Origin: Candidatus Omnitrophota bacterium
GTDB taxonomy: Bacteria; Omnitrophota; Gorgyraeia; JABMRG01
Length of the DNA: 64,000 nucleotides
Assembly (NCBI GenBank): GCA_030593065.1
Contig: JAUVHV010000002.1
Coordinates: 33,003-97,002 of the forward strand
Direction of reading: 5' to 3'
Below the pieces are notes generated by a model. The model had not been told where the DNA came from and searched no databases. It worked only from the letters and a program-made list of their open reading frames with translations. Below are positions 1 through 18,724 of the stretch, piece after piece (position 1 is the stretch's first letter; every line of letters starts with the position of its first letter). The position numbers and the translations under genes are program-made.

Positions 1-3000
1 GGCGGTGCGATTGCGAATTAGAGGCAGGGGAATCTGGATAATAATCCCCAATTCCTCAATATGCCTGCGTAAAGAAGCAGGAATAAGCTCTAAATATTCT
101 TCTTTAAGCGAACATACCCTTAAACCTGCTTTATCAACTATCTGTAATGGCATATCCCTGGCGCTGATTATTTTAAAGTTACCAAAGTTAGTCGATTTAT
201 TCTCAGTAGGTTTTGTGGCGATAAAATCGGATTGGGCCAATAGTTCTTTCTCTATAAGCAAAGGCTGTTTATTGCCTTCATAATCAAGAAGGTAAATAGT
301 AAAGTTCTCATTTTGGGCAAGGCCAGCAAAGGTCTTCCAACTCCTTTGGGCAAGCATAGCGTCAAGTTCGGGGATAGTATTATCAATCGTCTTAATCCGC
401 CGCACTGTTACGCCTTGTTTTACGCTTTCATCATTAACTTTGCGTATGCCGGTGAGTTTAATCGCCTTTGGCTTGCCTGATGTGTCTTTGATTACAGTAA
501 AACTAAAGATGTAAGCGCGGTCTCGGTTTTTAGTAATAAACTCCAGTCTATCTACCCCCTCAAATATGGTATATTTACCGGTACCAAAAAACCCGGCTAA
601 CTCTATCTGTTCCCCCTTTGCCTTAGTCGATTTAGGAATAAGCAGGGCTACTTCCTTAAGCGCGCCTGTGCCATCATCAGCAGCCTCTTCTACATACTCT
701 TCCTCTCCATACTCATTTTTCTGAAGGTAGAAATCAATTACCAGCTCTGAACTTTCCGCATCGCTTGAGTTCTGGGTAATCTCGCGAGCATAACCACCGG
801 ACTCAGCTTGCACGGTTATATTTTTCAATAACTCGGCCTCTAAGCTATTAGAACGCTTGGGGGGACTATGGATATGCTCAAGAAGATAATCTATATCCAT
901 AACTATATCCTCTTCACCGGCTTTGGGACGCCTCTGCTCTAATTTAATTATCTGAGAAAGTTCAATTCCCCCTTTAGCAAGGGCAAAATCTCTACCAATG
1001 AAAACAAGGCGCCTTTTTTCTTTTATCTGCTCTACCTCATTAGCAAGAAAGATTATAAATGCCCGCGCTTCACCCAGATTATGGGGTTTATCCGGGTGTT
1101 CAATATAGGAAAGAATATCATCGAAATCAAGAACCTTAAATGTCTGGTGCAATCTTTCCAGGAACTTTCTCTTTACCCCATCTTTTGCATCAAGAATTTT
1201 AGAGAGCTGATTTTTTACAACTTGGATATTTTTACCATCGTCCAAGCTTGCGGCACAGGAAAGAAATTGAACAATATCAGTAATCTCAGAGAGTTTAATC
1301 TGATTATAGGTTGCTCCTTTCAGATCCTGGATAAAACGGGCAATAAGAGGAATGGCATCAACCTTTTCCTGAGCATCTATATCCCACCCATGACCTAATA
1401 CCTCAAAAACATTGCTATCAATAACGTCAAATCTTAATTCAGGATTGCTGCTCAGCCAAAATAGTTGGCTAAATAAAATATTATAAAAGTCCTTTTGGAC
1501 TGTATATTCTTCCTGGGTGAGCAGACCTGCTACAGAATTGAGATATTCAGGAAGAACCTTCAGGATCTCGTGCATTCTTTCGCTAAGCATATCAAAGGGC
1601 AAAGGTATGCCTAAATCCAAAGTCTCACCACTTAAAGCGTCTTTATATCTTTTTACAATCTCTTTCTCCTGGTCTTCATACAGTTTAGTAATAAATTGTT
1701 TAATTATGCGTTCAATGTCCCCCTCATATTCTTCAGGAATTAGCTCAAGAAACGGTTCATAAGCAATTTTTGCCTGAGCGATGAATTCATCTCTTCTGGG
1801 CAAAATATTATTTTGCCACAATTTAATTGCCTTTTTTTCATCTTTAGTTTCAATTTCGAAATCCTGCTTAGTTTCGGGCATACCCGAAATCCCTCTCCAT
1901 TCATCATGATAGCTTTGTGCCACAGCTTGAGCAATAGCGGCTAAGGTTTCTGCTTTATGATCTGACGAAGGAATGTTATTTACTACTATAGTGAGGGCTT
2001 GGGTAACCAACTCCTGAGCCTGGGTGATGTTACCGCTTTGTGCCGCAGCCTGAGCAATAGCAGCTAAGGCTTTTGTTTTATGATAAAAGTCAAAAATATC
2101 ATTTTCTGTTATTGTGAGAGCTTGGGTGACCAACTCCTGGGCTTGGGTGATGTTACCGCTTTGTGCTGCAGCCTGAGCAATAGCAGCTAAGGCTTTTGTT
2201 TTATGATAATAAGAGTTAGAAATATCATTTTCTGCTATTGTGAGGGCTTGGGTGACCAACTCCTGAGCTTGGGTGATGTTGCCGCTTTGTGCTAGAGCTT
2301 GAGCAATAGCAGCTAAGGTTTTTGTTTTATAAGGGAGGTCAAGAATATCATTTCTTGCTATGGTGAGGGCTTGGGTAAATAACTTCTGGGCTTGGGTGAT
2401 GTTGCCGCTTTGTGCTGCAGCCTGAGCAATAGCAGCTAAGGTTTCTGCTTTATAAAAGGAACTGGTAATTTCATTTCTTACTATTGTAAGAGCTTGAGTA
2501 ATATCGCCGCTTTGTGCTAGAGCTTGAGCAATAGCAGTTAAGACTTCTGTTTTATAGGAGAAGTCAAGAATATCATTCCTTGCTATGGTAAGAGCTTGGG
2601 CAAATAACTTCTGGGCTTGGGTGATGTTGCCGCTTTGTGCTGCAGCCTGAGCAATAGCAGCTAAGGTTTTTGCTTTATAATAATAAGAGTCAGAAATATC
2701 ATTTTCTGCTATTGTGAGGGCTTGGGTGACCAACTCCTGAGATTGGGTAATATCGCCGCTTTGTGCTAGAGCTTGAGCAATAGCAGCTAAGGCTTCTGCT
2801 TTATAAAAAGGATCACTAATCTCATTCGCGGCAAGTAAAAGTCCGTTAAATATTTCTTCCTGCCTTGTATCAATGGGGCCTTGCGCAGAGACAAAAATCG
2901 GCTCTTCGGGCCTGGCGGGGTCGAGATAGATTACATCCCCGGTTTTGGGGTTGAGAAAGACAAAGTATTTGCCGTCAAAAGAGACAGAGCTATATTCATA

Positions 3001-6000
3001 AGCAACTTTCAGCTTGTCAGAAGCTATGCTACCTTCAAGCCACCAGGTATTCTCTAAAATTACGGATTGATGAGGAAAACAAGCAGTAACCGCACCATTA
3101 AAACAACCTGTTTGATCACCGTCGAGATTGTATTCATAAATTTTCCCTTCAAAGTAAGATATCAACTTGCTCCTCGTGGGTTTATAATTCACAACCTCAC
3201 CTTTAAAAGGAATTTTCTTGCCGGGTTCCATACCAATCGCCACTGGATTATCCGGATCAGAGTTGTCGATGAAAAGATCAAAATGAGGGTGCTTGTATGC
3301 GCCTTTTTGATTTAGTCTCTGGAGCGGATCTACTGAAATGACTCTGTGAAACCATTCACCATCCCTGGCTGCCTTGTATGTCCCATTAATAAAACCCTCT
3401 CTATAATCAAAAGGCCCAAAACTCTTATCATAGATATCACCTTCTTCGGTAAAAAATAATGTTCTATTATTTTCAAATATTACCCAATAAACTGCTTTAC
3501 CGTTTTTCCAGCCTGTGCCTATACTTTGTATCTCCTCCCCTCCAAAATCGGGTAGATAAAGCAGATTCTTTATCTTATGAATATAGATAAATGTATCTCC
3601 AGATGTTGTGCCAACTGCTACTGTATATGTTCCGGTAGAATCAGTATGCAGGTACTTAAGCAGGTACTTAAGTTCGTCTCCAGCACCAACGCACTTTCCT
3701 GTTTCCAAATCAATCAAACTCATCAACGCAGAATCTTTATCCCGCACAAAGGCCACATTAGCAAAAGGATTGATAGCGTATTCCACATTGCCTTTGCCCA
3801 GATTAATACGGCCGATTATTTCTCCACCCTTATCAGGGAAAAACTCTGCAATAAAGGCACCTTTGGAAATTTTTAATTTTGTTTTCGCGGAAGCTACTGC
3901 TTCTACTGGGATTATCTTTATAATCACAAGCTCTTTTTGGCCTGTTTCTTTGTCTTCCAAATAGGTCAAGTACTTGCCATCTTTGCTGAATTGGAGATCA
4001 GAATAAGGGTTTTGTAATGGCTTAACCGTAGGCTGCATAGAAAAACCTGACCCCAAATAATATTTTTGCCCATTCTCTACATCAAAGACTTCTCCATTCA
4101 TTGTGCCGTCTCTCCTTTGCACATAGGCAAAGCGTTTGCCAGATGGAATAATTATATCGCCTTCATCTTTAGAAACATGGAATACTGGTGGAAAAAAGAT
4201 ATCCTTACCTAATTTTTGGATATTACATGAACTCTTTGTTGTAACTTTATAGTATCCTTTTCCTAACAGTTCTATCTGCTCTATAGCTCTATGCCTACTG
4301 GCTATATTTGTCTCCAGGTCAAGCAGGTCTCCATTCTCTAACAATACAGTTTTTTGGTTAGCATCAAGAGGAGGTTTATTAGTTTTTGCGATTGGTGCTT
4401 CAACAGAAACAGGGGGCCTGGCAAGAAACTTATTAATTGCCTCTGAATCAATCTCGCCTTGGCTTTTTATAAGGTCAGCCTGAGAAGCTAATCTCAGGTT
4501 TTCTTTGGGTTTGGTAATCTCATAAGAGGTAACCACCTGTTCAGCGGTAATTATATTGACTATCTGTAAGAGCAAGGCCAATTCTCTCTCTTCATCACCT
4601 GTTAATCCTTTCACTCTTTTAGCTGTTAATTCACTAAGCCTCTTGCTGCCTGATAAGTTACTGGCAATGGCAATAAACCTGTCTGTCCTGATGATGGGCA
4701 ACCGGCCTTCCTGCTGCCAGGTATGCCACTGGCGATGGTATCTTAAGACACCTTTTAGGCTCTCTTCAGTAAATGGAACGAGAACCAGCGGTAAGTGTTT
4801 ATCCCCATCCAAGCTGATACCAGAGACTACAACTCCTCCGATCTCCTTAAGGCTCAATACCCCCTGCCAATCAAACAAGTTCTTATTCACAAACAGAACT
4901 TCTTTGCCTTGCGGAATGGTCAATTTTTTAAATAGTTTATCGTGGGGTAAAATAACAAAGTTCTCTTCTCTTAAGGCACTTATAATTTCCGCTAAAAGTT
5001 TCTGAGTATTCGCACAGATAGCCTTGATAGTGTGAGCATAGTTTTCATTGCCCTGGATTAATTCCTCAAGCCCCACTACAATGGTATTGATATATCTGAT
5101 TTTGTCAACATTGGAGAGGGTGGAATGACTGATGATTTCAATAATAGCTTTCTCTACTGCCAACTGAAAATTGGATTTTTCTCCCGACTTAAGTTCAAGT
5201 GGAATGATGATATTGTCCCGGGATTCAGGCACATCTAAAAGAGAGCCAAACTCAATCATCAGCCCGCCCTCAGTAGTAGCCTCTTTAGCAATATCCTGTG
5301 GAATGTCAACAGCCACAATCACCTCGCTGTTTCTGGAGAAAGAGACTCTATGGGGGAGTGTAGTATCCTGCACCACCTTAATCTTGCTAAGTTCTTTCTG
5401 AGCTGCTTCACCACTTAAAGGCTCTGGATGCTTGGTTCCCTGTTTAGGAACAAACATCCGGGAAAGAACCCCTGCTGCCATACCTCTACCATTATCTATT
5501 ATTTTTACTGTGTGCCCGCGTAATTGAATCTGAATATTACCCGCTCTTTTTTCCGGTGTATAAACCGAGTCTTTAGGAGGAACTATAACCTCTTTCTCTC
5601 CAAAACCATTCACTTTTTGGGGTTCTTTATTCTCTACTTGAGTGGTTATTTCTACAGCAGTAACATAAGGGAAACGCTTGTGAATAGCTTCTGCAATGCC
5701 TTCCTGGGAATTACGGCGTTGCCTACCAAGTTCCTCACCTGTTAATGGTAGCTTATTCTTAGTAGCTATCTTCACCACTGTTCCCTGCTCTACTGTCTGG
5801 CCACAGGCCTTTTGAAATACCTGAAGAGAAATCTTTCTAATCTGGATATAATTCTGCCCTTGTGTATCTTTGAGTATAATAAGCTGATAAGGCAGTCCTT
5901 GCTTTTCCTTTGTAAAAACATCTATCCTGTCTGCGCCCGTAGGCTCTAACCAATCAATGATTTGCTTGACACCTTTGCCAAATTGACCAATCTCAAGTCC

Positions 6001-8139
6001 AAGCGCATCAAGGCCGTTAGAAATAGCTTCTAATATTCCCTGGGCACGGGGATTTTTGTTTTGTCCAATAATCTCAATCCTTAGCCTGGGGTCCTGATAA
6101 GTTGAGTTATTAATAAGGTTGATAATCTCCCTGGTATAACCTTTTTCAGTAAGGCTCTCATAGATCCTCTGATAAGCAGCATCTCTGAAAAGCCCCTGTT
6201 TAACACCCAAAACAGAAAGAATTCTTTGCAGTACTTCCGATGGTAAATTCTGCTCCGCCAGTTTATTCTGCGCCCAGACAAAATGTTCAAGGCTAACTCC
6301 AAAAAAGTTTTGCTTAGAGTCCGAATATTCAAATGCCTGTTGGCTTTTCTTGACTATTTTGGCGTCTTGCGGCTTAAATGGTAACCAGGTCGATTCTAAA
6401 GAATCGCCCTCTTTGGCCCTCTCCTTGCCCGCAGAGGAGGCTTTTCCCTTCTCTGCCATATTCCAAATTTCTTTAAAAGCCTCTTTCGTATATTCTCTTA
6501 TTTCCCGTGGACAAAGATCGCCGTTAACAAGAGGCGCTGAGAGCATATGCTTAAAAGATTCTGTTAATTCCGCAATGTCCGGTAATATGCCTGCCATTCT
6601 GTCTGAGTACAGCTTTTCGTAATTTTCTATGCCAATGTTTGGACATATTACAACGTAGGATATATCTTTCTCTTTTAATATATTTGTTATGCCCTGGGTA
6701 TGAAAGCCGCCTGTTATGAGCATGGCTCTCTCTTTACGGCTGCGGCTCATAGCCTTTAGCGTGTTACCTACTAACGCTATGTCTCTTTTTAAAGCAAGTT
6801 GATAGTATCTTTTGGAATTATCTATCGCCTGTTGTTCTATGCAGGTTGAAGTGACAACATGGTTTAGATTCAGGCCATATTCAGCAAAAGCTGCTTTTAA
6901 AAATTGCTGAATATTTACAATGTTGGATGATTGTAAATTTTTATCTAAGTAATGCAGTTGCCTGGGGGTAAGTTCCAAGCTATATAGGCCTTGTAATATC
7001 TTTACTGACTTACTATACAATACCAGGTTTTTCTGAATGGGCGTTTTAGACAGGGCAAGCATAAGCTCCCCTTCCAGGTCTTCTGCTTCATCAAATACTT
7101 TAATATGGTTTATCTCTTTGGAGAATTTTAGGTAGTCGATGTATATGGTTAAGTGGTTATAGGTGTTTGGTGTTAAAAATTGTTCAAGATAATTATAAAA
7201 GGCTATATCCGAGAGCTTATTGAGTTTGAAGTCGAGGCTATTTTTAAGAAGCTCCTGCAGCTTCTCATTCTCTAGGTTTTCGGAGAGGTGCTTAATCAAC
7301 TCTTCTCTCTGAGCTTGGGCATCTTTAAAATCTACGCTCTTCTCTTTTTCAATAAGCCGGATGAACTCATTGAGGCTCTTATATTTCTCGATATCTACTT
7401 TTGTCTTTTTGGAGTAATATTGCAATGCTTCAAGATATTCCGGAAGTTGGAGCTGCTTTGCGTAATAAAAACCGGCTTTCTTATCTATATCTTTTAACTG
7501 TTTAGAATATACCTTTTTCTTTAAGATATTTATGCTTATTTCAACAGCTTTAAGGAATTTTAAGATTTTGTCTCTATCTAATCTATTCTCTTTGTAGGAT
7601 GCAAGGTGTTCTAAGTAGGCGGCTTTATCTTCCGTACCCTGAGCCTTGAGGGACTTATCCGTATTTGTTATCTTATAAAACTCAGCACCGGTAAAAAGGC
7701 CTTTTTCAACGAAGAGCTTAGCTGTTTTATTCTTTATCTTACCATCCGGGAATTTATTGTAGAACAAGGTATTGAGTTCTTTTGACGCACCCTCTAAACA
7801 CATAAGGTGTGTATTATGCTTTATATTAAACTCATCTATTATCTTCGCTATGTTAAGCTGGGCAACAGGGTCTATATGGCGGTCCTGGATATGTACAACC
7901 AAAAAGTCTCCTTCGCCCTTATAGGTATCTATGACCCTTCCTATCGATTCAGGTATAGTGATAGAGCCGGGATCGCTTACTATGTCAGTTCTTTTTTGCG
8001 TTAAACTATCCTCTACCAGATATCTTTTGGCATGAGGTTGTGATCCAAATAAGGTAGGATAGCAATAACCATAGGTACTGGTCAAAGCTATACTACTGCT
8101 GAGTATTATAGATAATATTCTTTTAATATTTAAACTCAT
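1..8139 (-). CDS. Giant multidomain protein. N-terminal 2713 codons lie in the window; the gene starts at ATG 8139 and runs off the window at position 1 without a stop.
   Basis: I translated the reverse complement block by block in the frame whose codons end at plus-strand coordinates divisible by 3. No stop codon occurs from 8139 down to 1. An in-frame TAG lies immediately upstream at 8140-8142. The N-terminus reads MSLNIKRILSIILSSSIALTSTYGYCYP. The ORF track omits it because it has no in-window stop. Confidence 0.8.
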   Translation of the reverse strand, partial: MSLNIKRILSIILSSSIALTSTYGYCYPTLFGSQPHAKRYLVEDSLTQKRTDIVSDPGSITIPESIGRVIDTYKGEGDFLVVHIQDRHIDPVAQLNIAKIIDEFNIKHNTHLMCLEGASKELNTLFYNKFPDGKIKNKTAKLFVEKGLFTGAEFYKITNTDKSLKAQGTEDKAAYLEHLASYKENRLDRDKILKFLKAVEISINILKKKVYSKQLKDIDKKAGFYYAKQLQLPEYLEALQYYSKKTKVDIEKYKSLNEFIRLIEKEKSVDFKDAQAQREELIKHLSENLENEKLQELLKNSLDFKLNKLSDIAFYNYLEQFLTPNTYNHLTIYIDYLKFSKEINHIKVFDEAEDLEGELMLALSKTPIQKNLVLYSKSVKILQGLYSLELTPRQLHYLDKNLQSSNIVNIQQFLKAAFAEYGLNLNHVVTSTCIEQQAIDNSKRYYQLALKRDIALVGNTLKAMSRSRKERAMLITGGFHTQGITNILKEKDISYVVICPNIGIENYEKLYSDRMAGILPDIAELTESFKHMLSAPLVNGDLCPREIREYTKEAFKEIWNMAEKGKASSAGKERAKEGDSLESTWLPFKPQDAKIVKKSQQAFEYSDSKQNFFGVSLEHFVWAQNKLAEQNLPSEVLQRILSVLGVKQGLFRDAAYQRIYESLTEKGYTREIINLINNSTYQDPRLRIEIIGQNKNPRAQGILEAISNGLDALGLEIGQFGKGVKQIIDWLEPTGADRIDVFTKEKQGLPYQLIILKDTQGQNYIQIRKISLQVFQKACGQTVEQGTVVKIATKNKLPLTGEELGRQRRNSQEGIAEAIHKRFPYVTAVEITTQVENKEPQKVNGFGEKEVIVPPKDSVYTPEKRAGNIQIQLRGHTVKIIDNGRGMAAGVLSRMFVPKQGTKHPEPLSGEAAQKELSKIKVVQDTTLPHRVSFSRNSEVIVAVDIPQDIAKEATTEGGLMIEFGSLLDVPESRDNIIIPLELKSGEKSNFQLAVEKAIIEIISHSTLSNVDKIRYINTIVVGLEELIQGNENYAHTIKAICANTQKLLAEIISALREENFVILPHDKLFKKLTIPQGKEVLFVNKNLFDWQGVLSLKEIGGVVVSGISLDGDKHLPLVLVPFTEESLKGVLRYHRQWHTWQQEGRLPIIRTDRFIAIASNLSGSKRLSELTAKRVKGLTGDEERELALLLQIVNIITAEQVVTSYEITKPKENLRLASQADLIKSQGEIDSEAINKFLARPPVSVEAPIAKTNKPPLDANQKTVLLENGDLLDLETNIASRHRAIEQIELLGKGYYKVTTKSSCNIQKLGKDIFFPPVFHVSKDEGDIIIPSGKRFAYVQRRDGTMNGEVFDVENGQKYYLGSGFSMQPTVKPLQNPYSDLQFSKDGKYLTYLEDKETGQKELVIIKIIPVEAVASAKTKLKISKGAFIAEFFPDKGGEIIGRINLGKGNVEYAINPFANVAFVRDKDSALMSLIDLETGKCVGAGDELKYLLKYLHTDSTGTYTVAVGTTSGDTFIYIHKIKNLLYLPDFGGEEIQSIGTGWKNGKAVYWVIFENNRTLFFTEEGDIYDKSFGPFDYREGFINGTYKAARDGEWFHRVISVDPLQRLNQKGAYKHPHFDLFIDNSDPDNPVAIGMEPGKKIPFKGEVVNYKPTRSKLISYFEGKIYEYNLDGDQTGCFNGAVTACFPHQSVILENTWWLEGSIASDKLKVAYEYSSVSFDGKYFVFLNPKTGDVIYLDPARPEEPIFVSAQGPIDTRQEEIFNGLLLAANEISDPFYKAEALAAIAQALAQSGDITQSQELVTQALTIAENDISDSYYYKAKTLAAIAQAAAQSGNITQAQKLFAQALTIARNDILDFSYKTEVLTAIAQALAQSGDITQALTIVRNEITSSFYKAETLAAIAQAAAQSGNITQAQKLFTQALTIARNDILDLPYKTKTLAAIAQALAQSGNITQAQELVTQALTIAENDISNSYYHKTKALAAIAQAAAQSGNITQAQELVTQALTITENDIFDFYHKTKALAAIAQAAAQSGNITQAQELVTQALTIVVNNIPSSDHKAETLAAIAQAVAQSYHDEWRGISGMPETKQDFEIETKDEKKAIKLWQNNILPRRDEFIAQAKIAYEPFLELIPEEYEGDIERIIKQFITKLYEDQEKEIVKRYKDALSGETLDLGIPLPFDMLSERMHEILKVLPEYLNSVAGLLTQEEYTVQKDFYNILFSQLFWLSSNPELRFDVIDSNVFEVLGHGWDIDAQEKVDAIPLIARFIQDLKGATYNQIKLSEITDIVQFLSCAASLDDGKNIQVVKNQLSKILDAKDGVKRKFLERLHQTFKVLDFDDILSYIEHPDKPHNLGEARAFIIFLANEVEQIKEKRRLVFIGRDFALAKGGIELSQIIKLEQRRPKAGEEDIVMDIDYLLEHIHSPPKRSNSLEAELLKNITVQAESGGYAREITQNSSDAESSELVIDFYLQKNEYGEEEYVEEAADDGTGALKEVALLIPKSTKAKGEQIELAGFFGTGKYTIFEGVDRLEFITKNRDRAYIFSFTVIKDTSGKPKAIKLTGIRKVNDESVKQGVTVRRIKTIDNTIPELDAMLAQRSWKTFAGLAQNENFTIYLLDYEGNKQPLLIEKELLAQSDFIATKPTENKSTNFGNFKIISARDMPLQIVDKAGLRVCSLKEEYLELIPASLRRHIEELGIIIQIPLPLIRNRTA
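560..790 (-). other. HSP90/sacsin/MORC-type HATPase (Bergerat fold) motif set in the C-proximal part of the giant protein
   Basis: N-box REITQNSSDA occupies 757-780. About 34 aa later, G1 box AADDGTGA occupies 661-678. About 28 aa later, G2 box GFFGTGKYTIF occupies 568-594. Order and spacing match HSP90 motifs I, II and III. Confidence 0.55.
1925..2815 (-). repeat. About 7.5 tandem copies of a 120-bp unit encoding 40-aa alpha-helical TPR-like repeats (one copy is 99 bp / 33 aa)
   Basis: The repeat is directly visible as a 120-nt periodicity: ttgtgc(c/t)gcagcctgagcaatagcagctaaggc ... gggcttgggtgatgtt. It translates to YKA(K/E)TLAAIAQA(A/L)AQSG(N/D)ITQAQ(E/K)L(V/F)TQALTIA(E/R)NDI. Confidence 0.9.
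2880..4300 (-). other. Beta-strand-rich region of the giant protein, possibly a beta-propeller
   Basis: Repeated patterns such as KDGKYLTY, GTYTVAVG and DGKYFVFLNPKTGDVIYL are reminiscent of propeller blades. This is inference only. Confidence 0.25.
5480..6050 (-). other. GHKL-superfamily-like motifs in the giant protein
   Basis: ILEAISNGLDAL is N-box-like (E-x-I-x-N-x-x-D-A). VKIIDNGRGMAAGV is G1-box-like (D-N-G-x-G-M). The spacing between them, about 180 aa, is atypical. Confidence 0.3.
6650..7920 (-). other. Region of the giant protein with TraB/GumN/Tiki-like motifs
   Basis: GDFLVVHIQDRH lies near 7890. The downstream motif MLITGGFHTQGITNILKEKDISYVV lies near 6690 and resembles the GxxH ... 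GGxHxxG pattern of the TraB/GumN family. This is a weak, motif-only call. Confidence 0.25.
8073..8118 (-). other. N-terminal hydrophobic segment of the giant protein (signal peptide or membrane anchor)
   Basis: Residues about 8-22 (ILSIILSSSIALTST) follow the positively charged stretch KR. Confidence 0.4.
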
Positions 8140-8344
8140 ACTTATACCCTATAAATAATCTTTACCTTATTAAAAGGTCTTAATATGTGGGGTTAATAAA
8201 CTGGCTGCTCACTTGTTTTGTCGCAACTCTTATTACTATATAAAAAAGATACCCTGTTTTTCGCTTTAAGTCAAGGGGGAGGGGCTATTTTTCGTATTAT
8301 TATTAGAGTTTCGTTGAAACTCTTTAGATTGGATAAGTGGTGAA

Positions 8345-8453
8345 AATATTACTTGTGTCTTCTGCCTTTAGCAGCGCATTGGCTTTTTTTGCCATGAACG
8401 TAAATAGACGGCAAAAATACCTGCGCTGCTAAAGGCAAAGGCATAAGTAATAT
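8345..8453. repeat. Palindromic ~110-bp intergenic element, copy 1 of 3
   Basis: Inverted arms (c)ttatgcctttgcctttagcagcgc / gcgctgctaaaggcaaaggcataag flank a centre that holds an inner hairpin ggctttttttgcc ... ggcaaaaatacc. Near-identical copies lie at 13674-13783 and 57139-57240. Confidence 0.85.
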
Positions 8454-8461
8454 TCCTATCA

Positions 8462-13783: not shown

Positions 13784-13851
13784 CTATCAGCAAAAGTTGC
13801 TGCGAAACTCTCAACTTAGATGGAAACAGCTTTGATCTTTCTTTTAATTGC

Positions 13852-13879
13852 AGCTTGACAATGGCGAACATCGTTATAT
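13852..13879 (+). promoter_or_regulatory. Putative sigma70-type promoter of the GGDEF gene
   Basis: TTGACA, a 16-17 nt spacer, then TATAAT. The first ATG codons follow immediately at 13883 and 13892. Confidence 0.35.
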
Positions 13880-13882
13880 AAT

Positions 13883-15062
13883 AATGCTTGCTATGAATGA
13901 TAAGGTTAAAAAATTACAAAAAGAGCTGCTGAAAACCAAGGCGGAACTTTGGCTCTTATATGAAATATCAAACGCAATAAGAACAACTTTAAACCTGCCT
14001 GAGGTACTCTACGTAATATTAAGCGCTGTAACATCTCAAGAAGGCCTCGGTTTTAATAGGGCAATGCTTTTTCTTGTAAATAAGACCCGTTCAGCGCTTG
14101 AAGGTGTTATGGCTATAGGGTCTACCAATGCTGAAGAAGCGTATGCCATATGGAAAAAGATTGAGGAAGAAAAATTAAGCCTTGATAAAATAGTGGATAT
14201 GTTTCACAGGATAGATAGCCATGTAATAAAAGCGCCCTTAAATAATATTGTAAAGAAAATAAGGCTGCCGCTGAATGAAACCAGTGGGATACTTGCAATG
14301 TGTACGCTTGAAGGTATGAATTTTGAGATTACATCCAGGCCTGCCAGAAAAAAGATATCAGACCCAACTCTCGATAAGCTTCATGTGGATCTTTTTACAG
14401 CTGTGCCTCTTAAAGGAAAACGTGAAACTTTAGGCGTTCTTCTGGTAGATAATATGATAACACAGAAACCTATTACCAGGAATGATATCCGCATCCTTAC
14501 TATGTTTGCAAACCAGGCAGGCCTTGCGATAGAGAACGCCCATCTTTATGAAACTACAAAATTTCAGGCGCATACCGACTCCTTGACAAGATTATGGAAC
14601 CATGGATATTTTCAAAACAGTTTAACAGAAGCTATAAGAGAAGCCAGATCGCGGAAATCTAGTGTTACGCTTGCAATGATAGACCTGGATAATTTCAAAA
14701 TATATAATGACATTCTTGGCCATCAAAAAGGTGATGTCGCTCTTCGTGAGGTTGCGTCTGTGTTAAAGAAAAGTACTCGCAATCAGGACCTTGTGTGCAG
14801 GTATGGTGGTGAAGAATTTGCAATCATAATGCCTGGCATAGAAAAAGAAAACTCATCTTATACTATTGAGAGGTTAAGACTGGCCATAGAAAAGACTTTT
14901 AAACGTATTGAAAAAAAGAGATCTTTTCCACCTCTTACAATAAGCGCAGGCATCGCGTCTTTTCCAAATGACGCCAAAAAAAAAGAGAGTCTCATCAAAA
15001 AAGCTGATGAGGCTCTCTATACTGCGAAGCATGCCGGAAAAAACAGGGTAAACAGCTGTTAA
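13883..15062 (+). CDS. GAF-domain diguanylate cyclase (GGDEF). The ORF-track start at 13848 probably lies inside the promoter.
   Basis: The C-terminal GGDEF domain carries the RYGGEEF active-site motif. The N-terminal domain is GAF-like. Confidence 0.8.
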
Positions 15063-18000
15063 ACTTTCCCATCCGTAACACGCTCTTTTGATACTTTTGC
15101 TGTAACCGCTCCTGTCACATCCTGATTAAACTTTTTTGTTGCCGTTTCTTCAAACTCTTTCTTTCTGCTGGCTATCTTCTCATCATCCACAAGCTGAACC
15201 GAAACTATCTTAGATATACCGGATTTTTCCATTGTGATGCCATACATCAGGTCACAGACAGAGATAGTTTTCTTATTATGTGTGATAATAATAAACTGCG
15301 TTGTCTTTATAAACTCCTGCAATATTCTGCTGAAACGGTCTATATTAGCTTCATCCAGAGGCGCATCGATCTCGTCTAATATGCAAAATGGGGTTGGCCT
15401 TACCTTGAAAAGCGCAAAAAGGAGTGCCACAGATGTAAGCGCCTTCTCTCCTCCTGATAATAATGAAATGCATTGAAGCTTCTTTCCCGGGGGCCGAACC
15501 GCTATCTCTATACCGCTCTCTAATATATCAGCCTGATCCATAAGGAAAAGTTCTGCCGCGCCACCACCAAATAGAAGCTTAAAATACTCTTTAAAGGCAA
15601 CTTGAATCTGTTCGAATGTTTCGATAAACATTCTCCTCGTAGTACGATTTATTTTGTTTATCGCTTTATGAAGACTTTCTTTCGCGCTCAAAAGATCTTC
15701 CTGTTGGCTGCTCAAAAAATCATACCTCTCTTGCAATTCCTTGTGTTCTTCAATCGCAACAAGGTTTACATGGCCCATCTTATCTATCTTTACCTTTATA
15801 GATCCCACCTCTTGCGCTATTCTTTCCCAGTCTTCGGTTCCTTCAAATACAACCTGTTCTTTATCAAGATCGACCTTGTACGCTAATTCTATTCTCTCTT
15901 TTATACTGTTAGCCTTGTGTGTAAGCTCGCTTATATTTAGATAAAAATTTGATATGTTATTTCTAATCTCATCAAGATCCTTCTGCATATTACGGGCCTT
16001 TTTCTCCATCTCATTAACCTGCGTATACGCCCTGCTTCTATCTCCCAAAAGCGCCGTAAGCTCCTCATTAACAACGGTAAGTTTCTCTCTTAATGCTATA
16101 TTCTCTTCAGTAGCACGTTCAATATCAGTTGTCAAAGAAGAAGATTTGGCATGAGCTTTTTCATGCTGATTCTTTCTCTCTGAAACTGATATATTCTCAT
16201 TATGCAATGACTCCTTAAGCATATTAAGGGATGCGTTTTGTGAATCATAGTTTTCAGCAACAAGCGACATCTGAGTCCGCAATTCTGCGAGAGATACTAT
16301 GGCCTTCTCTTTCTCATCAGCTTGTTGAGCAATTGTTTCCTGATTCTGGCTTACAAAGGCTTCTATCTTGTTCTGTTCTGCCTCAAGGTTTATTAATTCT
16401 GTATTCAATGATTCTTCTCGCTGCTTGAGCGTAGCCTCTTCCGCGGTTGTCTCATCCAATTCAAGTTCAATGAGGGTCAATTCCTCTTGTAGTTTATCTT
16501 TCTGCTCTTTAACTTTTATTTTTTGAGACTCTTTTTCATGAAGTTTTATCTCTTCTTTCTTTGCTGCCTCTTCCTGGCTCGCCACATCCTTCTTCAATTG
16601 CTCAAGCCTAAATGCCGTGCTGGAATGCTCTTGCTCATAACCAGAGATCCGGCTCTTGAGGATATTTACCTCATTCGCAAGCTCATTTATCTTTGCGTCT
16701 CTCCCTATGATACTGGTATATTCATCCGCAAAGTTCGGGCCACCGGAATAAATAATGCCGCCTTTCATGTCACCTTCTTTTGTCACGAATACCATAGAAG
16801 AGTTTACATTTTGTGTATCATCAGGTATATGTTTTACTAAATATGTCTCTTTTAATAAATAATTAAGCGTATCTTTACCTCCATCTCTTGCCCCTATAAG
16901 CTCAGACAACTTTACCGCCTCAGGTACAGGGCAAGAAAAATTATCTTCACGCAAAACACTAGGTATATCTTCAGAAACTATGAACTGTGCCCTGCCCTTT
17001 TTGTTCTCCTTAAGAAAAATCAGTGCTTTCTGACGAGCTGTACTATTCCTTACTATTATGGCCTGGCTTTTTTCACCCAAAACACATTCAAGCGGCCTGA
17101 TAAGGTTCTCCTTTGCTTCTATCATATCTGCTACAATACCTACAAACAGCTCTTTCTGCTGGGGGTCATTTTCTATAAACTCCATGTAGGCCTTTACCCC
17201 CTCAGAAAAACCTTCCTGATTCCGTTTAAGATCTCTTAAAACCTCTAACTTTGAGCTGGATGAAGCGAGCTTCTGCTTCATCTTATCTATAATATCTCTT
17301 TTCTCCTTAAAATTAATACCAAGCTGCGTAAAGGCATTCTTAAGCGAATGTAAAAGCTGTAGAACGTTTTCTAAAACTTTTCTTTGCTCAATAAACGCGG
17401 TCTCCGCAACCTGCAAGCTCGCTTCAACCGCATCCTTATCTTTTATAATCTTATCTTTTTCAATGCTCAGCCTGCGATTACGTGATAAAGCAGTAGCAAC
17501 ACCAGCTGAGGCTTTACTCAATTCATTCCTGGCCTTTGACTGGTTCGAGGCATTCTCCATTACAGTAACCTTACTATCAGATATAGCCTTTTCACACTGT
17601 TTTATAATTTGGGTTATATTATTTAACCCATCTTCTGTTTCAGCTACAAGCGCCTGTTTCTTTTCGCGCTCATCATTTACCAGGTTAAATTCATATTCCA
17701 CGGAAGTTATCTTCTGCCGCATTTCAGAGGTTCTTCTTCCAATCTCCTCTATCTCTCTTGCGAGTGATCCGGAACGTTGTTTCAGCTCTTCTATCCTCTC
17801 AGTATCTACTCTTATACTGTTTTCATTCACACCTATAGCAGCTGAGGCCTGAGATACTCTCTCTCTTGTCTGTGCTATATTCTCATCAAATGAATTTATC
17901 TTTTCGCGATATATGCGCAATTCATCCTGCGCCAGATTAAGCCCTAAGGAGAGGTGCCCTTCTTTCTGTTTAAAAGAGCCTGTACAAAGTTTTTTATCTT

Positions 18001-18724
18001 TCTCCTGCTCCCTGACTTCGTTATATTCATGTAAAGTCAATTTAATATCAAGATTTTTTAATGTATCAAATTGCGCCCGGAATTTCTCTGCCTTCTGCGC
18101 CTGTCTCTCAATAGAATTTATCTGGCGCCTTACTTCATTTACAATATCCGCTATCCTGACAAGATTACTATCTGTATGCTCTAGCTTATTCAGCGCCTCT
18201 TTTCTCTTAACCTTATACTTTGTGATACCGCTTGCTTCCTCAAATATCTCACGACGGTCTTCAGGCTTTGCGTGAAGCACGCGATCCATTTTACCCTGCT
18301 CAGCTATAGAGTACGAGCTTACACCAATACCGGTACCTGCTAAAAGCGCGGTTATATCCTTAAGGCGTACCTGCGTCTTATTTAAAAGATATTCACTTTC
18401 GCCTGAACGAAAAATCCTTCTTGCTATAATAACTTCATCATAATCTACGGGAAGAGTGCGATCAATATTGGAAAAGGTCAGGGATACCTCAGCAAAATTG
18501 ACTGCTTCAGTATTGTCGGCGCCATTAAAGATTATATCTTCCATCTTTGAACCGCGCAGCTCCTTGGCACTCTGCTCACCAAGAACCCATTTGATGCTGT
18601 CGCTGATATTAGACTTTCCGCAGCCATTTGGGCCTACTATGGCTGCGACACCGGGCTCAAAACTGAGGGTTGTTTTATTAGCAAAAGATTTAAATCCATA
18701 TAATTCGATTTTTTTAAGGTACAA
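15059..18724 (-). CDS. smc: Chromosome segregation protein SMC
   Basis: N-terminal Walker A GPNGCGKSN, long coiled coils, and the C-terminal signature LSGGEKALT followed by a D-loop. Confidence 0.9.
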   Translation of the reverse strand: MYLKKIELYGFKSFANKTTLSFEPGVAAIVGPNGCGKSNISDSIKWVLGEQSAKELRGSKMEDIIFNGADNTEAVNFAEVSLTFSNIDRTLPVDYDEVIIARRIFRSGESEYLLNKTQVRLKDITALLAGTGIGVSSYSIAEQGKMDRVLHAKPEDRREIFEEASGITKYKVKRKEALNKLEHTDSNLVRIADIVNEVRRQINSIERQAQKAEKFRAQFDTLKNLDIKLTLHEYNEVREQEKDKKLCTGSFKQKEGHLSLGLNLAQDELRIYREKINSFDENIAQTRERVSQASAAIGVNENSIRVDTERIEELKQRSGSLAREIEEIGRRTSEMRQKITSVEYEFNLVNDEREKKQALVAETEDGLNNITQIIKQCEKAISDSKVTVMENASNQSKARNELSKASAGVATALSRNRRLSIEKDKIIKDKDAVEASLQVAETAFIEQRKVLENVLQLLHSLKNAFTQLGINFKEKRDIIDKMKQKLASSSSKLEVLRDLKRNQEGFSEGVKAYMEFIENDPQQKELFVGIVADMIEAKENLIRPLECVLGEKSQAIIVRNSTARQKALIFLKENKKGRAQFIVSEDIPSVLREDNFSCPVPEAVKLSELIGARDGGKDTLNYLLKETYLVKHIPDDTQNVNSSMVFVTKEGDMKGGIIYSGGPNFADEYTSIIGRDAKINELANEVNILKSRISGYEQEHSSTAFRLEQLKKDVASQEEAAKKEEIKLHEKESQKIKVKEQKDKLQEELTLIELELDETTAEEATLKQREESLNTELINLEAEQNKIEAFVSQNQETIAQQADEKEKAIVSLAELRTQMSLVAENYDSQNASLNMLKESLHNENISVSERKNQHEKAHAKSSSLTTDIERATEENIALREKLTVVNEELTALLGDRSRAYTQVNEMEKKARNMQKDLDEIRNNISNFYLNISELTHKANSIKERIELAYKVDLDKEQVVFEGTEDWERIAQEVGSIKVKIDKMGHVNLVAIEEHKELQERYDFLSSQQEDLLSAKESLHKAINKINRTTRRMFIETFEQIQVAFKEYFKLLFGGGAAELFLMDQADILESGIEIAVRPPGKKLQCISLLSGGEKALTSVALLFALFKVRPTPFCILDEIDAPLDEANIDRFSRILQEFIKTTQFIIITHNKKTISVCDLMYGITMEKSGISKIVSVQLVDDEKIASRKKEFEETATKKFNQDVTGAVTAKVSKERVTDGKV

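Follow-up and report, generated by a model that had tools for sequence, protein, structure and literature searches.

A lineage-specific family of modular giant proteins in Omnitrophota with conserved terminal caps and a recurrent junction hexapeptide

Giant multi-enzyme proteins of Omnitrophota with methyltransferase, HATPase and HD content have been described in two preprints (West-Roberts et al. 2023, bioRxiv 10.1101/2023.11.21.568195; Nielsen & Lui 2026, bioRxiv 10.64898/2026.06.07.730766). The proteins in these studies have lengths of at least 10,000 or >30,000 aa and contain numerous transmembrane (TM) helices, SecA-DEAD, C39/S8 peptidase or dockerin domains. According to West-Roberts et al., it is unknown where the giants are cleaved, and whether they act as a single chain or as cut pieces is an open question. 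Nielsen & Lui define a co-occurrence "Module 1" containing methyltransferase PF08241, HATPase PF02518 and HD domains. The protein described here, P0001, comes from the same phylum and is likewise an apparently signal-bearing long chain tiled with unrelated enzyme domains. Its content (GHKL, HD PF01966, methyltransferase PF08241 and TPR) matches "Module 1", and distant family members carry sugar-metabolism domains (PGM/PMM) of "Module 2". However, its 4,154 aa fall below the 10,000-aa minimum of the Nielsen & Lui catalogue and, unlike the giants of the two preprints, it has one hydrophobic segment and no SecA-DEAD, C39/S8 or dockerin domains. It lies outside the 'Archaeovorin'/dockerin-type definition (>30,000 aa, numerous TM, SecA-DEAD or dockerin/TSP3); Pfam detected no SecA, dockerin, TSP3, C39 or S8. 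Neither preprint mentions the TIKI/TraB-like N-cap, junction motif or C-cap reported below.

MARTX toxins have conserved ends that flank strain-variable effector modules, which are separated by linkers, freed by an in-built protease and swapped by recombination. The layout of P0001 is similar, but RTX repeats and a C80 domain are absent, no type I secretion genes adjoin the gene, and the protein does not qualify as a MARTX toxin. Its junctions are a fixed hexapeptide where MARTX has Leu-containing loops, and their processing is presumed. The resemblance is one of functional analogy only.

The window analyzed here is a 64,000-nucleotide stretch of a Candidatus Omnitrophota assembly (GCA_030593065.1, contig JAUVHV010000002.1, positions 33,003–97,002). 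Reverse-complement translation of window positions 1..8139 (minus strand) gave 2,713 codons from ATG 8139 with zero stops. The ORF listing of the window is blank at 1–8139 because the frame leaves the window. P0001, an NCBI protein encoded on a 203,899-bp contig, is 100% identical across all 2,713 window residues and provides the C-terminal remainder of 1,441 residues along with the stop codon, ~4.3 kb past the left edge of the window. The gene, from an Omnitrophota-type bacterium, is intact and spans 12,465 nt (4,154 codons); the 8,139 nt in the window are its 5′ two-thirds, codons 1–2713. The earlier note, made from the window sequence alone, had proposed a very long gene running stop-free to the window edge and recommended leftward extension to find its end; P0001 confirms the first and supplies the second. 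A pseudogene, multi-gene fusion or assembly chimera is very improbable and was rejected. The TPR repeat DNA (123-nt units, 85% identical) is prone to copy-number assembly error, and a 5-kb contig of another assembly, found through ribE, ends at a hairpin upstream of the gene, but the 2,713 codons lack a stop, an identical full-length protein exists in NCBI data, and catalytic motifs are kept in every module. Many independent assemblies also share the module order, in co-linear HSPs of great length. P0124 aligns with P0001 in a single HSP across aa 537–3084 (62% identity) and P0002 over 576–1753 and 2084–3058, so the module order is not an assembly artifact.

The N-terminal segment (8062..8139, minus strand; aa 1–26) has K6 and R7, a 12-residue hydrophobic core and small residues, followed by a conserved YPTLF. 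Residues 1–24 (Kyte-Doolittle 1.34) are the sole hydrophobic segment of the protein. The segment is conserved in the family alignment and forms helix 3–24 in the structure model. Judged from hydropathy and by eye, a Sec signal is a closer match for it than a membrane anchor. The hydrophobic stretch of the earlier note's "N-terminal hydrophobic anchor" is present, and its membrane anchoring was not upheld.

The N-cap (6460..7962, minus strand; aa ~60–560) is predicted to contain a TIKI/TraB/erythromycin-esterase-type alpha/beta core, interrupted by a ~290-aa helical insertion (aa ~172–466). In its AF2 model (pLDDT 80.8), a central parallel beta-sheet is flanked by helices, as in BcR135, ChaN, HopBA1 and RRSP, and structural neighbors include the toxin/effector domains RRSP, PMT and HopBA1. 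Invariant residues are D86, H88, Q94, E116, G117, E153, E170, R452 and G477-G478-F479-H480. Among them is the invariant constellation D86-x-H88, E116 (+28), R452 and H480 (+28); the signature occurs in 91 of 120 members, with the 28/28 spacing in 82. A 2His/2Glu signature with a conserved basic residue has been reported for Bcr135 (H85, E113) and RRSP (H3902, E3930, R4001, H4030) (PMC6254334). The N-cap spacings, compared by sequence position, equal those of Bcr135 H85-E113 and of RRSP H3902-E3930 and R4001-H4030. The N-cap carries the signature, which is of a protease or esterase type, but its first acidic residue is Asp rather than Glu.

Profile searches found no counterpart. Nineteen N-caps gave zero Pfam matches to PF01963, PF05139 and PF04187 even at E ≤ 10, an N-cap profile search of the PDB returned nothing, and Foldseek gave no significant match. 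The modeled structure supports membership of the TIKI/TraB/erythromycin-esterase superfamily at the fold level only, and the "TraB/GumN-like region" of the earlier note holds at that level but not in Pfam. The N-cap shares its predicted fold and a 2His/2Glu+Arg-type signature with the TIKI superfamily (Tiki, TraB/PrgY, EreA-C/BcR135, ChaN, HopBA1 and RRSP of MARTX). It differs in its lack of sequence-profile similarity, its helical insertion, its Asp for the first Glu, and its fusion as an N-terminal cap onto kilobases of cargo.

The first cargo lies nearly entirely within the window. It is a widespread cassette in which a propeller-like domain and eight TPR repeats lie between two GHKL modules, A (MutL/Hsp90-like) and B (Hsp90-like). 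Module A (4390..6366, minus strand; aa ~592–1250) is a GHKL ATPase with a transducer-like domain. Its motifs are an N-box (E704/N708/D711), IGQFGKG (717–723), DNGRGM (882–887) and MFVPKQGTK (895–903). Their order is unusual, with the N-box and G2-like motif (717–723) preceding G1 (D882-N-G-R-G886). The modeled fold is a Bergerat fold of MutL/Hsp90 type with a transducer-like second domain, which bears out the "GHKL-like motifs" called from sequence. Module B spans aa ~2097–3050, and its N-terminal two-thirds (aa 2097–2713) occupy 1..1851 (minus strand), where a GHKL domain of Hsp90 type comes after a helical region. Its Bergerat motifs, E2453/N2457/D2460, D2488-x-G2490-x-G2492 and G2516-x2-G2519-x-G2521 (window 577–783), are invariant across 13 sequences. 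PDB profile matches were to Hsp90 N-domains only (best E 5.6e-5), in agreement with the "HSP90/sacsin-type HATPase motif set" of the earlier note. A conserved HELAH motif lies past the window edge. An exhaustive search found 112 representative homologs of module B, all internal to proteins of 2–7.7 kaa; a word-index search gave only 3 matches.

Both modules have GHKL motifs I (E-x3-N-x2-D), II (D-x-G-x-G) and III (G-x2-G-x-G), with the catalytic Glu and Mg-binding Asn of GHKL/GHL ATPases (MutL, Hsp90/HtpG/GRP94, GyrB/ParE, MORC and SMCHD1), and module A adds the GHL-type transducer-like domain. As in sacsin, several Hsp90-like modules lie within one very long polypeptide. Unlike these systems, the modules fall below all Pfam and NCBIfam cut-offs, lack the Hsp90 middle and C-terminal domains and the MutL endonuclease domain, and sit inside a modular, presumably exported protein that has no DnaJ or HEPN domains. 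HATPase_c (PF02518) reached 12.7 bits (cut-off 26.4), and homolog P0002 reached 24.5 bits with PF13589 (cut-off 25). NCBIfam gave sub-threshold TPR and sacsin matches only, and the protein does not qualify as NF047352 (P_loop_sacsin).

Between the GHKL modules lies a beta-rich domain (2881..4374, minus strand; aa ~1256–1753). It is probably a beta-propeller. The signal is weak and comes from composition and profile matches to 7-bladed propellers (PpgL, E 0.007; Atg18, E 0.015), which lend some weight to the "beta-rich region" noted before. Its copy number in relatives varies from 0 to 4. The domain is followed by eight tandem TPR-like repeats of ~41 aa (1885..2826, minus strand; aa ~1772–2085), previously noticed as about eight ~40-aa helical repeats. 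Pfam and repeat register identify them as TPRs (TPR_12, 64.6 bits, cut-off 30.1; TPR_2, 61.1, cut-off 27; TPR_8, 48.5, cut-off 25.7), and TRF reports a 123-nt period with 85% matches.

Beyond the window, P0001 encodes an HD phosphohydrolase module, a SAM-methyltransferase module and a C-cap. A PADLOC scan gave only a weak Cas3-HD-like match on the HD module, and a defense-system identity was rejected on that result. The C-cap is ~250 aa long; 30 of the 35 close-clade proteins carry it, invariably at the end, and profile searches with it found nothing in the PDB or Pfam. The N-cap is N-terminal without exception and was found in 118 of 119 matches. At least 579 family loci were counted in genomes of species representatives, nearly all of them Omnitrophota, and all relatives are Omnitrophota or Auribacterota MAGs. 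The likeness to Omnitrophota giant genes first remarked on was correct. The best N-cap identity among GTDB species representatives is 54%, the genome of the window being outside that set. P0001 is a member of this large, lineage-specific and little-studied modular family, which combines a Sec-signal-like N-terminus, a ~500-aa N-cap and interchangeable cargo. The earlier claim that no known family has this architecture is only partly right, given the breadth of the family and the related giants in the two preprints. What is new here is a subfamily set by the predicted TIKI-fold N-cap, a C-cap at the very end and the hexapeptide K-[AST]-S-S-A-G at the junctions. The conserved N-cap, the C-cap and the K-x-SSAG junctions between interchangeable modules had escaped the first reading.

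P0004 lies downstream of an equivalent riboflavin operon yet carries other cargo, which documents cargo turnover at a syntenic locus. Such turnover, conserved caps around variable cargo, the signal-like N-terminus and the toxin/effector neighbors of the N-cap are features expected of a MARTX-like or polymorphic effector polyprotein. Such a protein would be delivered into a host or prey cell that supplies ATP and SAM, and its modules would be released as effectors. Cofactor-dependent cargo makes little sense outside a cytoplasm, and the literature portrays Omnitrophota as predators or episymbionts that have giant surface proteins. However, Pfam finds no RTX repeats or C80 cysteine-protease domain, secretion-system genes are absent beside the gene in syntenic and related loci (at L001 and L003 there are housekeeping genes on either side), and distant family members bear glycolytic and sugar-metabolism enzymes, such as PGM/PMM, rather than toxin domains. 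We consider delivery as an effector improbable.

A conserved short peptide, K-[A/S/T]-S-S-A-G, connects the modules at their junctions. In P0001 it occurs at residues 566, 3054, 3615 and 3896. Only the first junction, K566-A-S-S-A-G571 (6427..6444, minus strand), is inside the window, within a low-pLDDT linker (aa ~541–587) that separates the N-cap from module A. The six motif positions carry ~3.7–4.0 bits each and the flanks are unconserved. SSAG occurs 72 times against ~7 expected, and permuted tetramers 1–12 times. Motif density per 1,000 aa is 0.082 in N-cap ORFs and 0.0045 in other ORF segments; enrichment is ~10–16x. BLAST HSP ends fall within 25 aa of a junction in 32% of cases, compared with 5.7% at random sites (maximum 12.9%). 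The motif is exclusive to these proteins and lies at the boundaries where modules are exchanged. Lineage variants are K-x-SSSG, KPASAG and RRSPAG, and the generalized pattern is found 137 times, compared with 8.6 in shuffles. P0124 has the same cassette bordered by the junction variant of its own lineage. Giants with shared cargo but divergent caps, 248,000 aa in all, contain no copy of the motif. Within the N-cap family it is limited to the close clade and a small number of others, and a k-mer search found no equivalent junction motif in the distant clade. Literature searches on the motif strings gave irrelevant matches only, and "Omnitrophota polyprotein" gave nothing. The natural C-terminus (…AKAA) was considered as a mimic of a cleaved junction half, but only P0007 (…AKAASAGA) fits, and tails vary (KAA, SAA, QAA, SQA).

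Third codon positions of the motif differ between genomes, pointing to selection at the protein level. Within a genome, junction codons are far more uniform than usage predicts: P0031 has TCA 9/10 (P = 2.5e-5) and GCA 10/10, P0004 has TCC 5/6 and GCG 5/6, and AGY serine codons, 32–44% of gene-wide Ser codons, are absent at the motif. This homogeneity also fits a DNA-level explanation. The protein may be an intact, uncleaved multi-domain scaffold in which K-x-SSAG is a flexible linker, its coding DNA a microhomology joint for shuffling or gene conversion between paralogous giants, and the N-cap has another hydrolytic or binding role (esterase, or ChaN-like ligand binding). The coincidence of the motif with HSP breakpoints, the differing cargo at the syntenic locus, the distant clade with a cap and no detectable junction motif, and the non-proteases of the TIKI superfamily (Ere esterases, haem-binding ChaN) agree with this. 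Neither a linker nor a joint needs six invariant residues, though, the amino-acid motif persists in genomes with differing codons, and its variants track lineage rather than cargo. The uncleaved scaffold is a credible reading, held at short of even odds.

The main reading, to which we give a probability of about 0.45, is an exported modular polyprotein with presumed processing at the junctions. The protein would be exported and would behave as a polyprotein-like carrier. Its junction peptides would be sites of processing, with the TIKI-fold cap as the most plausible protease; the superfamily includes sequence-specific endopeptidases (RRSP, Tiki), and such activity of the N-cap is inferred only from its conserved signature. 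Cleavage would free or articulate the enzyme modules. The two GHKL modules could act as an ATP-operated clamp around a ligand of the propeller and TPR spacer, and paralogs could swap cargo via recombination at the junction-coding sequence. A narrower proposal is that K-x-S-S-A-G marks proteolytic sites for the N-cap, acting in cis or between paralogs, with cap and junction co-evolving by lineage (SSAG, SSSG, PASAG, RSPAG) and recombination reshuffling the cargo. This is somewhat unlikely. Against the main reading, the N-cap is family-wide and the motif is found in few clades, so the cap cannot be a junction protease alone, unless undetected motifs exist elsewhere. The Asp in place of the first Glu and the codon homogeneity at the motif count against it too. 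ATP- and SAM-dependent cargo (GHKL, HD, methyltransferase) also conflicts with export, unless the protein acts inside another cell.

If the narrower proposal is correct, this would be a bacterial polyprotein system in which one exported precursor yields a GHKL clamp cassette, an HD hydrolase, a methyltransferase and other products, and Omnitrophota giant proteins would have their first defined cleavage code. The six-residue motif is a candidate answer to whether and where the giants are cut, and with the caps it provides a rule for dividing such proteins into modules for structure prediction. With proteins of 2–5 kaa, the family is a tractable entry to the Omnitrophota giant-protein puzzle. 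Cargo turnover at a syntenic locus and a widespread two-GHKL cassette around a variable binding spacer are also documented. The riboflavin operon lies directly upstream of the giant gene on the same strand. Ahead of the start codon, a consensus scan found a putative promoter-like block, TTGACT-17-TATCTT (8246..8274, minus strand), by consensus match only; the same block occurs at syntenic locus L003 (5055–5090).

The giant gene occupies positions 1–8139 of the window on the minus strand. Translation of the reverse complement gave 2,713 codons without a stop from the ATG at 8139, which confirms the uninterrupted frame of at least 8.1 kb described in an earlier note; the frame is missing from the ORF listing solely because it runs off the window. 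A search of a 5.8-billion-protein collection recovered the full product, P0001, an NCBI protein of 4,154 aa encoded on a contig of 203,899 bp, with 100% identity over the full query. This sets the gene length at 12,465 nt and places the stop ~4.3 kb left of the window. Upstream neighbors on the same strand are ribBA, ribH, nusB, a PHP protein gene, ribD, and ribE. A promoter-like block (TTGACT-17-TATCTT, 8274–8246) is kept in a syntenic relative. Between the ribE stop (8462) and the giant-gene ATG, a near-perfect hairpin of ~110 nt (8345–8455) has an RNA MFE of −57.3 kcal/mol (z = −9.05 vs shuffles) and no T-run. It gave only sub-threshold generic miRNA-precursor matches in Rfam on either strand and has no counterpart in the syntenic intergenic region of relative locus L003. 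A contig of another assembly stops right at this hairpin. The element may be a terminator or a small MITE- or REP-like palindromic insertion.

The gene is real, and its product is one of a large Omnitrophota family whose N-terminal domain (N-cap) has a TIKI fold. The protein search returned 119 further matches of 1,500–4,750 aa, nearly all from Candidatus Omnitrophota and a few from Elusimicrobiota. BLAST mapping showed that 118 of the 119 share just query residues ~50–550, a region at the extreme N-terminus in 116/117 aligned subjects. In the nearest relatives, similarity also covers the final ~250 residues, in every case at the very C-terminus; this subfamily combines the N-cap, a junction motif, and a C-terminal domain (C-cap). 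Species-representative genomes were scanned with a degenerate pattern and hits confirmed by N-cap alignment, giving at least 579 family loci in Omnitrophota (some auto-labeled "Planctomycetia") and Auribacterota, often several per genome. Most cap-bearing ORFs span 1.4 to >3.5 kaa. In distant-clade giants (e.g., P0044, P0047, P0052, P0053, P0063, and P0086), central-metabolism enzymes are fused behind the same N-cap, including PGM/PMM, PGK, PFK, PGI, enolase, aldolase, glutamate dehydrogenase, UDP-glucose pyrophosphorylase, and PEP-utilising enzymes.

The N-cap has no match among Pfam models or PDB sequence profiles. Aligning 19 diverse caps reveals 16 columns that never vary (I84, D86, H88, Q94, E116, G117, E153, G168, E170, Y175, R452, G477, G478, F479, H480, and P500). 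With this alignment, AlphaFold2 gave a confident model (pLDDT 80.8, pTM 0.68) in which a helical insertion of ~290 aa splits a small alpha/beta core with a parallel sheet. The defining features of the superfamily in the RRSP structure paper are a core built on a parallel sheet, catalytic residues of 2His/2Glu type, and a conserved Arg; the catalytic residues are H85 and E113 in Bcr135 and E3900, H3902, E3930, and H4030 in RRSP, with R4001 as the Arg (PMC6254334). The N-cap signature is D86-x-H88, E116, R452, and H480, with exactly 28 residues from the first His to the Glu and again 28 from the Arg to the second His. Searched as a strict regular expression, this signature is present in 91/120 family members, 82 of which have the 28/28 spacing and 90 of which have Asp at the first position. 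The TraB/GumN-like call of the earlier note is thus right at the level of the superfamily; the domain falls outside the Pfam TraB family. From its conserved signature the N-cap is a putative hydrolase, and the signal-like N-terminus suggests export.

The C-cap, searched with an HMM built from the final ~250 residues, is present in 30/35 close-clade proteins, always terminal, was never found in the distant clade, and has no relative in PDB or Pfam. Among P0001–P0120 and loci L004–L083, close-clade proteins end in x-A-A-COOH (KAA, SAA, QAA, RAA) and distant-clade proteins in x-S-L/V-COOH, clade-specific tripeptides that may act as signals for sorting or degradation. The P0007 C-terminus is junction-like (AKAASAGA).

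Modules shuffle at a hexapeptide junction, found in P0001 as KASSAG (566), KSSSAG (3054), KTSSAG (3615), and KASSAG (3896). BLAST alignments to relatives start and stop exactly at these positions, and 32% of HSP ends are no more than 25 aa from a junction site vs 5.7% for random sites (maximum 12.9%, 300 trials). SSAG is found 72 times in the 120 proteins vs ~7 expected from composition, and the eleven alternative orderings of its letters occur 1–12 times each. Its context is nearly always K-[S/A/T]-S-S-A-G with unconserved flanks; five positions carry 3.7–4.0 bits and others <0.7 bits, with up to 10 sites per protein. P0004 (2,717 aa), whose cap is 81% identical to that of P0001, illustrates cargo turnover: on a related metagenome contig its gene immediately follows the same riboflavin operon, yet it lacks the A-B cassette and carries other modules. 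No secretion or partner genes lie beside the related loci examined, where neighbors are housekeeping genes. The closest full-length relative, P0002 (49% identity), has an intein splicing domain (PF14890, E 3e-25) at aa 710–979, between N-cap and cargo, that is absent from P0001.

The cassette was delimited by an exhaustive HMMER scan with residues 2084–2713. The 112 representative proteins matched, nearly all internally within 2–7.7-kaa proteins, map back to module A (~592–1250), a beta-rich domain (~1256–1753, 0–4 copies), a variable spacer, and module B (~2097–3030), which ends beyond the window with a conserved HELAH. Modules A and B are GHKL ATPase modules, and the GHKL-like regions and HSP90-type motif set reported earlier were borne out. 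The invariant columns of module B are the three Bergerat motifs, and its profile matches only Hsp90 N-terminal domains in PDB (best E 5.6e-5, all three motifs aligned). The catalytic Glu and Mg-binding Asn are kept in both modules (E704/N708 in A, E2453/N2457 in B), and module A has the unusual order N-box, G2-like, G1. By analogy with GHKL dimers, the cassette might work as a clamp. The beta domain has weak profile matches to seven-bladed propellers (E 0.007–0.02). The spacer here consists of the eight helical repeats noted earlier, which exceed Pfam TPR cut-offs. These 123-nt units (window 1885–2826) share about 85% DNA identity (77–91%, periods of 123 and 249 nt), which suggests recent tandem amplification and leaves copy number vulnerable to assembly collapse. 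The HELAH (HExxH) motif, at P0001 aa ~2985–3000 and in a further alignment (A2), recurs across cassette homologs and hints at a zinc-metallopeptidase-like element in the cargo, an alternative candidate processing protease. Beyond the window, Pfam identifies an HD domain (3081–3204) and a class I methyltransferase (3679–3786).

The strength of the junction motif, its cis restriction to cap-bearing proteins, its covariation by lineage, and its linker position suggest that the protein may be processed at the junctions. The motif is 18x denser in cap-bearing ORFs (0.082 per 1,000 aa) than in all other ORF segments of the genomic loci (0.0045, near chance), is confined to the giant gene within the window, and was not found in 248,000 aa of giants with P0001-type cargo but divergent or no caps. 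Lineage variants are K-x-SSSG (P0024, P0124), KPASAG (P0014, P0020, P0023), and RRSPAG (P0046). The generalized [KR]-x-[SA]-[SP]-[AS]-G occurs 137 times vs 8.6 in shuffles (maximum 12) and 6–25 for scrambled-order patterns. A P0124 cassette homologous to P0001 cargo (residues 1141–3774) is bordered by its own lineage variant at 1099 and 3757. The in-window junction falls inside a low-confidence stretch of the predicted structure, with a well-folded domain on either side. Third codon positions of the motif differ between genomes, therefore indicating selection on the peptide. Within a genome, motif codons vary less than expected from codon usage and AGY serine codons are never used, a pattern that suggests copying or recombination at the joint inside one genome. 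This homogeneity favors the main rival to processing, that the motif is only a linker and recombination joint.

ATP- and SAM-dependent modules behind a secretion signal remain a paradox. Action inside a partner cell, as by MARTX toxins, would reconcile the two, but the defining features of MARTX toxins are all absent from P0001. Omnitrophota proteins of 10–147 kaa are described in two preprints (10.1101/2023.11.21.568195; 10.64898/2026.06.07.730766), and the giant ORF on its own is an unexceptional case of this known phenomenon. Pfams co-occurring in their multi-enzyme class (PF08241, PF02518, HD; PGM/PMM) match P0001 family content. Both preprints are silent on a TraB/TIKI-like cap, on any linker motif, and on processing as a polyprotein, and the cap-junction-cap organization appears undescribed. 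It makes testable the cleavage points of giants, stated as unknown by West-Roberts et al. (10.1101/2023.11.21.568195).

Elsewhere in the window, a GAF-GGDEF diguanylate cyclase gene (13848–15062, +) and an SMC gene (1,221 aa; 15059–18724, −) overlap by 4 nt at their 3′ ends on opposite strands; both are ordinary housekeeping context.
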